Shown here piece after piece: positions 22,499-25,777 of a DNA stretch of 28,874 nucleotides. The translations under genes and the position numbers were made by a program. The stretch lies in the NCBI GenBank assembly GCA_019912905.1, contig JAIOHO010000507.1, positions 1-28,874 of the forward strand. The letters are read 5' to 3'. The notes beneath the pieces are model-generated. The model was not told where the DNA came from and did not search any database. It saw nothing but the letters and a program-made list of their open reading frames with translations. Origin of the DNA: Anaerolineae bacterium. GTDB lineage: Bacteria > Chloroflexota > Anaerolineae > Aggregatilineales > Phototrophicaceae. The first letter of the stretch is position 1. The number at the start of each line of letters is the position of its first letter.

Positions 22499-25400
22499 CT
22501 AGGGTCGGCGAAAGACGTAGCCGACGCCCTGCTGGGTCTGGATATAGCGCGGGCTGTCCCCGGAAGGCTCCAGCTTTTTGCGCAGGCGGCTGACGTTGAC
22601 CCACAGGTACTGCGTCTCAGCCTGATATTCTGGCCCCCATACTTTTTCGAGCAGCTGCTTGTGCGTCAGGACCTGATTTTCATTGACTGCCAGCGTATGC
22701 AGCAGGTCATATTCGATGCGGGTGAGTTCGATCGGCTTGTTATTGAGGAACACCTCGCGGCGGGCAAAATCAATATACAGATCGCCCAGGTCGAGCGGTT
22801 CGCGCGTGCGCACCGGAATATCCATCACCCGTTTGAGGATGACATCGACACGCGCCATGAGTTGTTCTTCGGTGATCGGCCTGGTGATGAATGCATCCGC
22901 GCCGAACTGCTTCAACGCCCGCACTTCCTCCGCCTCCGAAGCTTCATCGGCCAGCATCACGATTGGGACTTCGGTGCGCTTGCGCATCCGCTCGCAGATG
23001 TCCAGGCTGTTGGCATCGGCCAGGTTGACATCGAGGACGATCATGTCCAGGCGAATCGCCTTGACATCGGAAAGCGCTTCTTCGCCCGACCGGTAAAGGA
23101 GCATTTCATAGCCCTGTTCATCGAGCTTGTTATAAAGGAACTTGACCAGGTTGGAACTGCCCTGAACCACCATGATCGCTTTCGGCTGGCGCTTCTGGAC
23201 GCTGATTCCGGTCTGGCGTGGGTCGGGGCGTGGCGACACTGCGGCTGCGACCGCCTGCGGCTCACTGCGCACCACTTCGGGCCGGGCCGGGGGCGGCGCC
23301 ACAATGCCGCTGCCCTGGGTCGTCGGCAGCGCAATAGTGATGGTTGTCCCCTTGTTCAGCACGCTTTCCGCCCACATCCGCCCACCATGCCGCTGCACCA
23401 GCTCGCGGCTGATATACATGCCCAGCCCCATCGGGTCGTTGATTTCGCTGTCCTCGGGCCGGTCGAACGGGTCAAACAATTGATCGAGGCGCTCGGCAGG
23501 AATGCCGACACCCTGATCCTGAACCACAATATGCACTTCCGTATCGTGATCTTCAAGCTTGAGGTTGATGGCCGCACCCCGAGGTGAATAGCTGAGGGCG
23601 TTCTGAAGCACATTGCTCATCACCCGCTCGATGCGCACTTCATCCACTTTGACCACGGGCAGTCGCGCCGGAGATTCCACCCGTATCTGGCGGCGGTTGT
23701 CGGCGAACAGGCGGTCATCCAGCACCCGCTGGACGATCTCGTACAGGTCCGTTTCCTCGCGGTCCAGCACCAGTCCGGTCACTTCGAGGTTGTACATATC
23801 CAGGAAGTTTTCCCACAACTCGCCCAGATTCTCGACGCTCTTTTCGATCTGCCGCAGAAACCGCGCCCGCTCCCGGTTGCCAAAGCGAGAGTGATTCTCC
23901 AGCAGCGCAGTCACCAAGCCGCGCAGTTCGGCGTGCGGCACCCGAATCTGTTCGGACATCAGATCGAGCAGCGAAATCTGAGTGGTAAACATGCTTTTCA
24001 GGCGCGAGTTGTCTCGGATGATACCAATCCAGCCCAGGTATTCGTTATTCAGCGTGCTGATGATGCGTGAGAACTCGACGTGGATTTCACGCTCCGGGTC
24101 CGCCAGGCTAATTTCCAGAATCGTGTAATTTTCGTTCTCATTGTTGTTGTCCAGAACAGACTGAATCGCATCTTGAAGCTGCGCCATGACGGTGTCCGCA
24201 TCGCGCGATTCGTGCGCCAGTCGGTCGAGCAGGATTCCCGACTCACGGTTGAGGACATCCGATGGGCTGATGCTGGTCAATTCGGTGAACTGCGGATTGC
24301 AAAAAGCCACCTGCCCGGTGTGATCGACAAAAAAGATCCCTTCGTAAATACTGCGCAGGATCGCTTCCAGGCGGCCACCCTTTTCGCCCATCACGGCGGT
24401 CAGCACATTCCGCACCAGCGCCTGCCCTGCGGCGTGCGCCAGGCTTTTCATCAGGTTGGCATCTTCCATGCCGAACTGCCGGTTGCCGACCGGGCTGGCG
24501 ATAAGCCCACCGGCCAGCCGCGCCGAATCGGTAATCGGAAACAGCATCAATTCCTGCCCGTGCAGCGCCCGAAACAGCGGCCCCAGCGGATTATTCTGCC
24601 CGCGCCCAAGCCGCAGAGTGACCTGAAGCTGGTCGTCCAGATCTTCATACAGGTGTCCGGTCAGGCCCTTGCGATGCAGATCATAAAAAATATCCGCAAC
24701 TTCCGCCTGCTGCGCGTTGACGATGACGTTTTCGCCGAATTCATCTTCGTACAGCCAGACCATACAATGACTGACGCTGGGAATATCTTCGATCAGATCG
24801 CGCAGATTCTGGGCGATATCGTCGGCACTGTTCAGAGTGATGAACCGCTGCCACGCCCGCAGCAGATGCGAACTGGCCTGCACCCGGCGTTCCTGTTCTT
24901 CATACAACTGCGCATTCTGCATCGCGGTCGTGAACTGGGCCGCGAACAACTCATAAATGACCAGATCATCCGGGTTCAACGGCTGTCCGGGGTTGCCGAA
25001 CACCGCCAGCGCGCCATAGGTATATTCCGGGTAGGCCAGGGGAATCACGATGGCCGATTCGACTTTAGGCAGCGTGGGGATCATCGTATAGTACGAGTCG
25101 GACTGGATATTGCCGAAGGTTTGCACGAAGTTGCTTTGGATCACCCGCTTGAAGGGGTCATAAGCGTGGGGGCGCATGGAGCTGGTATGCAGCGTATCGG
25201 GTGACGCCCCGGCACGCCCGGCATAGATATTCAGCATCTCCCCGTCGTTGATCACAATCGCCATCCCGTACAGGCCGAACGTCTGACAGGCCAGGTCGAT
25301 GGTCTCCGCGATCAGGGTCTGGACATCGGTCGCGGTGTGCAGCCGCCGCACCAGCGAAGTCAGCGTCTGCAAATTGTGATTGCGCCGGGCCAGGGCGCGG

Positions 25401-25777
25401 TTCTGCCGCCGCTGTTGGAGCACGAGACGAATGCGGCGGTGCAGTTCTTCCCGGTACAGGTCCTCGCTCAGGAAATCGGTCGCGCCCGCCTCCATCAGAT
25501 CGGTCTGGTAGCCGCTGTCCTTATTCTCGGACATCACCAGCACTGGCGTCAGCGGGAAACGCCGCCGGATCTCCCGCACCACGCCGACCACGTCGCTGCC
25601 AAAAACCAGATCGTCCAGCACCACCAGGTCATATTCCGAGTCGCGCAGCATTTCCATAGCTTTGCCAGGATCATCAATGACGCTGATGTTATAGGCTTCG
25701 GGGTTCAGCCCTTCAATCACATTCGAGCCGTTGCCGCTGACGACCAGCATGGCAATCGGTTGCGCTATCATCACCAT
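22499..25777 (-). CDS. Multidomain regulator REC-GAF-GAF-PAS-HisKA/HATPase-REC-OmpR/KdpE-type wHTH with degenerate phosphorelay residues
   Basis: HATPase boxes SNVLQNALSY, DQGVGIP, LFDPF, GLG. C-terminal wHTH LTRIEYDLL...VWGPEY...VSRLRKKLE...YIQTQQGVGYVF. GAGG RBS. The H-box reads SEQIRVP rather than SHELRTP. Confidence 0.88.
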   Translation of the reverse strand: MVMIAQPIAMLVVSGNGSNVIEGLNPEAYNISVIDDPGKAMEMLRDSEYDLVVLDDLVFGSDVVGVVREIRRRFPLTPVLVMSENKDSGYQTDLMEAGATDFLSEDLYREELHRRIRLVLQQRRQNRALARRNHNLQTLTSLVRRLHTATDVQTLIAETIDLACQTFGLYGMAIVINDGEMLNIYAGRAGASPDTLHTSSMRPHAYDPFKRVIQSNFVQTFGNIQSDSYYTMIPTLPKVESAIVIPLAYPEYTYGALAVFGNPGQPLNPDDLVIYELFAAQFTTAMQNAQLYEEQERRVQASSHLLRAWQRFITLNSADDIAQNLRDLIEDIPSVSHCMVWLYEDEFGENVIVNAQQAEVADIFYDLHRKGLTGHLYEDLDDQLQVTLRLGRGQNNPLGPLFRALHGQELMLFPITDSARLAGGLIASPVGNRQFGMEDANLMKSLAHAAGQALVRNVLTAVMGEKGGRLEAILRSIYEGIFFVDHTGQVAFCNPQFTELTSISPSDVLNRESGILLDRLAHESRDADTVMAQLQDAIQSVLDNNNENENYTILEISLADPEREIHVEFSRIISTLNNEYLGWIGIIRDNSRLKSMFTTQISLLDLMSEQIRVPHAELRGLVTALLENHSRFGNRERARFLRQIEKSVENLGELWENFLDMYNLEVTGLVLDREETDLYEIVQRVLDDRLFADNRRQIRVESPARLPVVKVDEVRIERVMSNVLQNALSYSPRGAAINLKLEDHDTEVHIVVQDQGVGIPAERLDQLFDPFDRPEDSEINDPMGLGMYISRELVQRHGGRMWAESVLNKGTTITIALPTTQGSGIVAPPPARPEVVRSEPQAVAAAVSPRPDPRQTGISVQKRQPKAIMVVQGSSNLVKFLYNKLDEQGYEMLLYRSGEEALSDVKAIRLDMIVLDVNLADANSLDICERMRKRTEVPIVMLADEASEAEEVRALKQFGADAFITRPITEEQLMARVDVILKRVMDIPVRTREPLDLGDLYIDFARREVFLNNKPIELTRIEYDLLHTLAVNENQVLTHKQLLEKVWGPEYQAETQYLWVNVSRLRKKLEPSGDSPRYIQTQQGVGYVFRRP

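Follow-up and report, generated by a model that had tools for sequence, protein, structure and literature searches.

A fused kinase-receiver-winged-helix protein of Anaerolineae with replaced phosphotransfer residues and a linked FHA partner gene

Pseudo-histidine kinases such as DivL of Caulobacter (PMC4211667) and PsmA of Streptomyces (PMC12963549) have been described, and pseudo-kinases and pseudo-receivers are common proteins whose way of working in bacteria is poorly understood (PMC12632262). Pseudo-histidine kinases, pseudo-receivers and atypical OmpR/PhoB regulators, and pathways fused into a single chain are each known as separate ingredients. Here we analyze a gene in which they occur together, located on contig JAIOHO010000507.1 of Anaerolineae bacterium GCA_019912905.1 (Chloroflexota; Aggregatilineales; Phototrophicaceae). 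The whole stretch of DNA analyzed, positions 1-28,874 of this contig, is referred to as the window. The product of the gene (hereafter the regulator) had been proposed from the sequence alone to be an entire two-component pathway fused in one chain, with its phosphorelay residues decayed (the original prediction). Comparison with its homologs showed that the loss of these residues is conserved under purifying selection and is not decay, and that the gene is linked to a small gene coding for an FHA-domain protein.

Replaced phosphotransfer residues in a fused regulator

The regulator gene (P0001; 22499..25777, minus strand) is a single intact open reading frame (ORF) of 1092 amino acids, the database copy of which starts at Met3 and has 1090. 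Its product consists of a pseudo-receiver, two GAF domains, a PAS domain, a DHp domain, a CA domain, a second pseudo-receiver, and an OmpR-type winged helix-turn-helix (wHTH), in this order. Pfam searches detected two Response_reg stretches (E=7e-29), two GAF domains, PAS (469-589), HATPase_c (712-820; E=6e-26), and Trans_reg_C (PF00486; 1014-1089), together with a weak, sub-threshold match to HisKA (605-664; E=0.058). Domain boundaries were taken from an AlphaFold2 model built on 108 homologs, in which all domains fold confidently (mean predicted local distance difference test score, pLDDT, of 84), including the DHp helices (593-628 and 634-667) and the CA fold (674-819), with pLDDT values of 84-94. 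All on the minus strand, these domains correspond to the N-terminal pseudo-receiver (residues 8-108; 25454..25756), the GAF domains (residues 152-268 and 318-436; 24974..25324 and 24470..24826) and the PAS domain (residues 480-589; 24011..24340), these three located by both Pfam and AlphaFold2, the DHp helical hairpin (residues 593-667; 23777..24001), the CA (HATPase_c) domain (residues 674-819; 23321..23758), a disordered Pro-rich linker with pLDDT <50 (residues 824-862; 23192..23308), the C-terminal pseudo-receiver (residues 867-989; 22811..23179), and the OmpR/PhoB-type winged helix (residues 1000-1089; 22511..22780). The absence of transmembrane segments (maximum Kyte-Doolittle 19-residue mean of 1.41) and the intact wHTH (Trans_reg_C at 89.1 bits against a cut-off of 26.2) were as originally predicted. 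The receiver-wHTH unit (860-1092) aligned end to end with MtrA, RegX3, PrrA, and KdpE, and the scores of the regulator stayed below the NCBIfam equivalog cut-offs for MtrA (195 against 300), RpaB (188 against 330), and KdpE (143 against 325).

In order to assign the phosphotransfer positions, the degenerate H box MSEQIRVPHAELRG was aligned with that of HK853 (2c2a/3dge) using phmmer, without gaps in this region. MSEQIRVP of the regulator aligned with ISHELRTP of HK853, which places E609 at the phospho-acceptor His (His260 of HK853), Q610 at the catalytic Glu (H+1), and V613 at the phosphatase Thr (H+4), while R612 and P614 are retained. The codon of Glu609 was verified at 23951..23953 (minus strand), and the predicted His to Glu change at this residue thereby held. 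The phosphatase/kinase motif HE/DxxT/N is missing, the family having R, Q, or H at H+1 and V, M, or L at H+4. Alignment of the C-terminal receiver with MtrA placed Q872-G873 at the acidic pair, D916 at the acceptor Asp, A943 at the Thr, and R966 at the Lys, in agreement with the predicted absence of the acidic pair and the Ala and Arg replacements. T to A and K to R are the commonest substitutions of pseudo-receivers (PMC12632262). In the N-terminal receiver, aligned with PleD, S14-G15 stands at the acidic pair, D55 at the acceptor Asp, and S83 at the Thr; here the predicted loss of the acidic pair and of the Lys and the retention of Asp55 were borne out, but the Lys column is E105, one residue past the S104 that had been claimed. 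The CA domain retains the N box (N722, N726), the G1 box (D754-x-G756-x-G758), and the F box (F768/F771). Its G2 box is P782-M-G784-L-G786, in which P782 replaces the first Gly, the only one lost, and the lid is shorter than that of HK853 by two residues; the predicted PMGLG was right, and "shortened" is a mild description of it. The regulator therefore has the fold of a functional HisKA kinase (DHp hairpin plus alpha/beta CA) without the acceptor His, and receivers (PF00072) that keep the acceptor Asp and lack the acidic pair; the C-terminal one also lacks both the Thr/Ser and the Lys, and the N-terminal one, which keeps S83, lacks the Lys. By the usage of PMC12632262, in which a pseudo-histidine kinase is a histidine kinase fold without at least one core function (here, the acceptor His) and a pseudo-receiver is a receiver match with at least one of DD, D, T, or K missing, it carries both.

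A search of 5.8 billion proteins retrieved more than 100 full-length homologs (~1090 amino acids), down to 37% identity, and all of those with a named source came from Chloroflexota/Anaerolineae metagenome-assembled genomes (MAGs). A scan of GTDB species representatives yielded 77 loci, most of which have a complete ORF of ~1090 amino acids; two (L037 and L068) look frameshifted and about 12 are cut by contig ends. Altogether the family comprises more than 100 sequence clusters and ~70 species, with identities of 29-84%. The fusion had been called rare, and His-less HisKA domains do amount to only ~0.9% of HisKA domains (PMC12632262), but a family of this size is no singleton. Residue columns were counted over 117 full-length homologs. 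The His column holds Glu in 94, Asp in 15, Gly in three, His in two, and a gap in three, so that Glu or Asp occupies it in 109. One of the two His calls (P0119) falls in a poorly aligned H box. The other, P0064 (53% identical), has His at the acceptor column (IIHYLRVP) and intact CA boxes, lacks the H+1 and H+4 residues, and still has a degenerate receiver; a reversion or a transitional form is possible. In the C-terminal receiver, G873 (110/117), D916 (113/117), A943 (101/117), and D944 (109/117) are highly conserved, Glu is found at position 872 in 94 of the homologs, and position 966 is Arg in 53, Lys in 23, and Asn in 20. D55 of the N-terminal receiver is kept in 88/117. His615, which the original prediction had named as a possible alternative acceptor ("VPH"), was discarded as a family-wide acceptor since its column is not conserved (Tyr in 72, His in 27, Phe in five, and Leu in four).

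Codon analyses against congeners (dS ~1) gave an overall ratio of nonsynonymous to synonymous substitution rates (dN/dS) of ~0.12. The wHTH was the most conserved part of the regulator (~0.03, near-invariant in the family), followed by the DHp domain (0.06-0.08), the C-terminal receiver (0.06-0.14), the N-terminal receiver (0.08-0.12), and the CA domain (0.12-0.18), and the linker was the least constrained (0.16-0.34). Low values in every degenerate domain indicated that these domains are conserved as they stand; selection on the orthologs is purifying and not relaxed. The original view of a cytoplasmic regulator unable to run a His-Asp relay and still constrained and DNA-binding agrees with this pattern, as judged from purifying selection everywhere and a wHTH conserved above all other parts.

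The ATP-binding motifs behaved differently. Members of the core clade, 49-58% identical to the window protein, have perfect N, G1, F, and G2 boxes, and ~40 of the 71 family rows of the tree described below, nearly the whole core clade among them, have these boxes intact despite the loss of the His. The boxes have been lost in the nearest relatives of the window protein (N726Y in L015; G756S and G784N in L022) and also in every deep clade. Since the Mg-binding Asn, G1, or G2 disappeared repeatedly in both near and deep relatives, ATP sensing is unlikely to be a conserved mechanism, and ATP binding as an allosteric signal, as had been suggested, appears doubtful.

FHA partner gene and candidate operator

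Upstream of the regulator gene and divergent from it lies a small gene (25994..26434, plus strand; 146 amino acids from the GTG at 25994) coding for an FHA-domain protein with an invariant Thr-x-x-Leu motif and a phosphothreonine pocket. This small FHA gene was found in 55 loci at 20-400 bp from the regulator start, almost always divergent, including loci of members with only 29-36% identity. Loci of Glu/Asp proteins with upstream DNA and no nearby FHA gene were L016, L032, L034/L036/L066, L055, L058, L082, and L088. Co-occurrence was determined in 41 related genomes, counting full-length orthologs of the regulator (E<=1e-160) and of the small FHA protein (E<=1e-28): the 11 genomes with the former were exactly the 11 with the latter, and the pairing holds in four genomes in which the two genes lie on different contigs. 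Three genomes (G012, G015, and G035) contained only weaker regulator-like matches (29-34% identity) and no ortholog of the small FHA gene. Since these genomes are kin and not independent, the co-occurrence is strong and not a statistical proof.

The phosphothreonine pocket of the FHA protein (G-R, S-R-x-H, N) is invariant in 56/56 sequences, and its N-terminal Thr is present in 55/56, in the context T-(R)-(K)-L. This context agrees with the preference of FHA domains for Leu or Ile at pT+3. GarA and OdhI were among the PDB and NCBIfam matches of the protein, at the level of generic FHA similarity only, and like them it has ~145 amino acids, with an N-terminal Thr motif ahead of its only FHA domain. 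However, its score for the NCBIfam OdhI equivalog was 31.3 bits against a cut-off of 200, its N-terminal motif (G-E-T-R-K-L followed by PRPW) differs from the ETTS of GarA/OdhI, and no link of its gene to 2-oxoglutarate enzymes was seen. The likeness is therefore one of analogy and not of membership. Thr991 in the conserved receiver-wHTH linker (DRTREPL) was considered as a family-wide docking site for the FHA domain and rejected, since a number of FHA-linked members have Ala, Val, Met, Leu, or Ser in its place.

The intergenic regions between regulator and FHA genes are ~200-220 bp long in the orthologous loci and have two -10 boxes in common. That of the regulator is TATAAT (25809..25814, minus strand), conserved as (G)YTATAAT, and that of the FHA gene is the extended -10 TGCTATACT (25935..25943, plus strand), the strongest conserved motif of these regions. 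A scan for the sigma-70 consensus missed both, because they lack good -35 hexamers. Within the FHA 5' leader, the minus-strand reading of 25962-25973, CTTGGTATAATC, forms another TGnTATAAT-like extended -10, conserved in the genus and in a few others (L018 and L074), which could be a second regulator promoter or an antisense promoter.

Given that no part of the regulator is better conserved than the wHTH, a conserved DNA target is to be expected. The first Gibbs motif-discovery runs returned only the coding sequence of the FHA N-terminus and the two -10 boxes; after masking these, T-rich repeats surfaced. Between the two boxes, at a distance of 30-65 bp upstream of that of the regulator, most species have two or three half-sites (consensus nTTTTYAY) with an 11-bp spacing. 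In the window these are the tandem half-sites TTTTCAT, TTTTATT, and TTTTCGC at 10-11-bp spacing (25856..25883, minus strand), the sole match with one mismatch in its 28.9 kb. A tied half-site model reached an information content of 4.71 at a period of 11, compared to 3.55 +/- 0.11 for dinucleotide shuffles and 3.95-4.26 for other periods, and with leave-one-out matrices the best spacing was 11 bp in 11 of the 25 representative intergenic regions and fell within 10-12 bp in 18 of them. The half-sites are similar to the KdpE site TTTATA-N5-TTTACA, which has been defined by experiment (PMC3264566). Based on these results, the TTTTYAY repeats are a candidate operator of the regulator. Both this element and the FHA gene are absent from the original prediction, and they change the likely input logic of the system. 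In the whole 6.3-Mb genome (G000), two of the only six perfect TTTTYRY-N4-TTTTYRY sites (L092:490-507 and L092:1257-1274) flank another FHA gene on contig C168 (L092:504-1163, minus strand; 219 amino acids). One of them lies in the divergent intergenic region that this gene has in common with a cyclophilin-like gene. This FHA locus could be a second target of the regulator.

Regarding the neighboring genes, the small FHA gene is followed, throughout the clade at >=50% identity, by a gene for a protein of 204 amino acids with a molybdopterin-oxidoreductase domain (26646..27260, plus strand), after which there is a terminator-like hairpin (27274-27299). No Rfam family was detected within the window, and hence no molybdenum cofactor or other riboswitch ahead of the Mo-enzyme gene. 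Directly after the regulator stop codon there is a terminator-like hairpin with a 12-bp stem (22466..22492, minus strand). Downstream lies an alpha/beta-hydrolase gene (Peptidase_S9/DLH-like; 21552-22604, minus strand), a gene of ~300 amino acids that trails the regulator by 4-67 bp in many loci; the longest ORF of the window copy extends over the 3' end of the regulator gene and the hairpin, and the gene therefore probably begins at a start codon further down. A second, larger FHA-domain protein (20362-21555, plus strand; 397 amino acids) is encoded two genes downstream of the regulator, and its orthologs (348-367 amino acids) hold the same position in L015, L016, L022, and L065. Further on are a DUF4350-like gene of 856 amino acids (16763-19333, minus strand) and an ABC ATPase; both directly follow the regulator in the 57%-identical locus L013 (11666-15229), so that synteny of this envelope/ABC cluster with the regulator extends to at least one distant relative. 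Genes for Hanks-type kinases and ECF sigma factors occur nearby in the loci of P0012 and P0107.

Ancestry and proposed mode of action

Canonical proteins with the same fusion exist in the same class. One of them (L085; 985 amino acids) is a GAF-GAF-PAS-HisKA-HATPase-REC-Trans_reg_C protein in which HisKA is clearly recognized (E=2.7e-15), with the H box LSHELRTPLATIKG (SHELRTP), intact CA boxes, and the complete receiver set E-D...D...T...K; L086 and L087 are similar. From GAF to wHTH the domain order is the same as in the regulator, with ~31-33% identity over residues 131-1087. These relatives differ in lacking the N-terminal pseudo-receiver, in having no small FHA gene adjoining any of them, and in forming a separate clade. 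In a quick IQ-TREE maximum-likelihood tree of the DHp-to-wHTH region (midpoint root), in which several long branches (L082, L088, and L090) are unreliable, the canonical proteins and L089/L091 formed one clade with SH-aLRT support of 100, and all Glu/Asp proteins fell outside it. This topology fits a relay that was lost once, in the family's ancestor, allowing for the midpoint root and the long branches. The best explanation for these data is that the regulator descends from a fully fused GAF-GAF-PAS-HK-REC-wHTH two-component protein (HK, histidine kinase; REC, receiver). L089 and L091, from Aggregatilinea sp. and a relative, are short PAS-HK-REC-wHTH fusions (654-680 amino acids) with Ser or Asn at the phospho-His column and a fully canonical receiver (E-D...D...T...K), which looks like an independent, partial relay loss inside the canonical clade. 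Two family records, L047 and L068, are titled "Bacteroidetes bacterium" and "Pleurocapsa sp."; L047 lies deep within the Aggregatilineales rows of the tree, so at least this label looks like that of a mis-binned or mislabeled MAG contig.

We infer, with reasonable confidence, that the regulator is a phosphotransfer-independent transcription factor, probably dimeric, in which conformational signals from the sensor array would pass via the DHp and CA domains to the pseudo-receiver-wHTH unit on phased repeats, controlling its own gene and the FHA gene. Dimerization would probably occur through the DHp and coiled-coil helices, and the array of N-terminal pseudo-receiver, GAF, GAF, and PAS domains would sense the signals, ligands of the GAF and PAS domains possibly acting allosterically, as originally proposed. 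The chemistry of phosphoryl transfer would be gone, given the changes in the DHp domain (His to Glu, the H+1 acid to Gln/Arg, the H+4 Thr to Val) and in the receiver (the Mg-binding Asp to Gly, the Thr to Ala, and the Lys to Arg/Asn/Lys), whereas folds and interfaces appear to be retained under purifying selection. Since the chemistry has been removed and the folds kept, transmission is most likely conformational, through the DHp bundle and CA to the pseudo-receiver-wHTH unit, and not by phosphorylation. An intramolecular contact between DHp and receiver, as in ShkA or CikA (PMC12632262), would be a plausible coupling device. The wHTH probably binds the 11-bp-phased TTTTYAY direct repeats in the promoter region that the regulator gene has in common with the divergent FHA gene, so that the regulator would control itself, the FHA gene, and, if co-transcribed, the Mo-oxidoreductase gene.

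Several observations weigh against this model. The predicted template modeling score of the AlphaFold2 model is only 0.45, so that its inter-domain arrangement is of low confidence. The operator motif is T-rich and degenerate, spacings other than 11 bp also exceed shuffles, and the TTTTYRY-N4-TTTTYRY pattern was not enriched in the whole genome (85 matches compared to 74 for a reversed-pattern control). The nearly invariant Asp916 could reflect a residual phospho-role, and some nucleotide-dependent function may persist in the core clade, judging by its perfect ATP motifs. Finally, the host is an uncultured organism known as a MAG.

The FHA partner would most likely add an input that depends on Ser/Thr kinases, possibly coupling the regulator to their signaling. 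A more elaborate proposal, which we put forward only tentatively, is that regulator and FHA protein make up a module of two proteins, in which a GarA-like switch has turned a former His-Asp pathway over to Ser/Thr signaling. Phosphorylation of the invariant N-terminal Thr (T-x-x-L) by a Hanks-type kinase would close the FHA protein, as in GarA/OdhI. In its unphosphorylated state the FHA protein would be open, dock onto the pseudo-kinase/pseudo-receiver scaffold, and switch the DNA binding of the latter, with feedback on the divergent promoters of the module. Docking might take place at an acidic residue that mimics a phosphate, for example the conserved Glu/Asp at the old phospho-His site. A different relation between the two proteins would follow if the CA domain had been re-purposed as a Ser/Thr kinase, acting on the N-terminal Thr of the FHA protein or on a Thr of the regulator then read by the FHA domain. 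CA domains of this kind serve Ser/Thr kinases in SpoIIAB/RsbW, PDK-type kinases, and plant phytochromes, and more than half of the tree rows (~40/71) keep the four boxes despite the His loss, next to an FHA partner with an invariant Thr-x-x-Leu and strict co-occurrence. But FHA-linked lineages, including the closest relatives and all deep clades, have repeatedly lost the Mg-binding Asn, G1, or G2, so that kinase activity cannot be the conserved basis of the pairing, and Hanks-type kinase genes are present near some loci; we regard this re-purposing of the CA domain as unlikely.

It seems similarly improbable that the C-terminal receiver still accepts a phosphoryl group at Asp916, from another histidine kinase or from a small molecule, which would make the regulator a conventional if atypical response regulator with a dead kinase module. 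The near-invariance of D916 and D944, the Glu at position 872 in most members, and the Lys at 966 in 23/117 would suit it, but three of the five catalytic positions are changed (the second Mg-binding Asp to Gly in 110/117, the Thr to Ala in 101/117, and the Lys absent in ~80%), and no partner kinase gene was linked to the regulator in any locus. That the gene is what is left of a fused two-component gene in decay and without function is very improbable: despite the loss of every phospho-site and a partial erosion of the CA motifs in the window subclade, the substitutions themselves are conserved, and likewise the promoter and the partner gene. Relaxed selection or a pseudogene was rejected, as far as sequence can tell, on the basis of the complete ORFs in most of the 77 loci and the dN/dS of ~0.12. 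Phosphotransfer-independent, conformational control of DNA binding thus remains the reading that we favor.

Comparison with known systems

The regulator family is a natural case of an entire kinase-receiver-output pathway fixed in one chain, and, since canonical relatives of the same architecture are available for comparison, the steps from phosphotransfer to pure allostery can be reconstructed. That the family is strictly paired with a GarA-like FHA protein points to a link, not described so far, between two-component-derived and Ser/Thr-kinase signaling in Chloroflexota, a phylum with hardly any experimental data on signal transduction. The analysis also provides a naming rule for more than 100 proteins at present labeled just "response regulator" or "KdpE".

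Like the regulator, DivL and PsmA have a histidine kinase fold without the acceptor His, and PsmA also lacks the D/ExxT/N phosphatase motif. PsmA of S. venezuelae also carries Glu in place of the His and is a hybrid protein that includes receiver domains (PMC12963549). However, a DNA-binding domain is missing from DivL and PsmA, which act through protein-protein interaction at the cell pole, whereas the regulator carries a wHTH, and the residue in the His column of PsmA varies between species, in contrast to the Glu/Asp of the regulator family.

The hybrid two-component systems (HTCS) of Bacteroides have a DNA-binding domain of the AraC type. They likewise combine kinase, receiver, and DNA-binding domain in one polypeptide, but they are membrane proteins with periplasmic sugar sensors and intramolecular phosphotransfer (PMC11253607), while the regulator is a soluble protein with an OmpR-type wHTH, and its phosphotransfer residues are gone. 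None of the HTCS hallmarks (transmembrane segment plus periplasmic sensor, AraC-type helix-turn-helix, and active phosphotransfer) was found in it. Atypical OmpR/PhoB regulators such as ChxR, NblR, and others (PMC12632262) have in common with it the pseudo-receiver-wHTH fusion, substitutions of the T to Ala and K to Arg type, and direct-repeat DNA sites, which in the case of the regulator are candidate sites. ChxR and NblR are stand-alone two-domain proteins, whereas the pseudo-receiver-wHTH unit of the regulator is covalently joined to a pseudo-kinase and a four-domain sensor array. In ShkA and CikA (PMC6969517; PMC12632262), an intramolecular contact between pseudo-receiver and DHp serves as a regulatory switch and provides a plausible model for DHp-to-receiver coupling in the regulator; unlike it, both are active kinases in which the pseudo-receiver gates autophosphorylation. 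The literature searched yielded no description of the regulator family or of a pseudo-pathway of the HK-REC-wHTH type. As far as these searches show, what sets the regulator apart from the known systems is apparently the complete pathway with every phospho-site replaced, the class-wide Glu/Asp at the His site, and the pairing with a GarA-like FHA protein.

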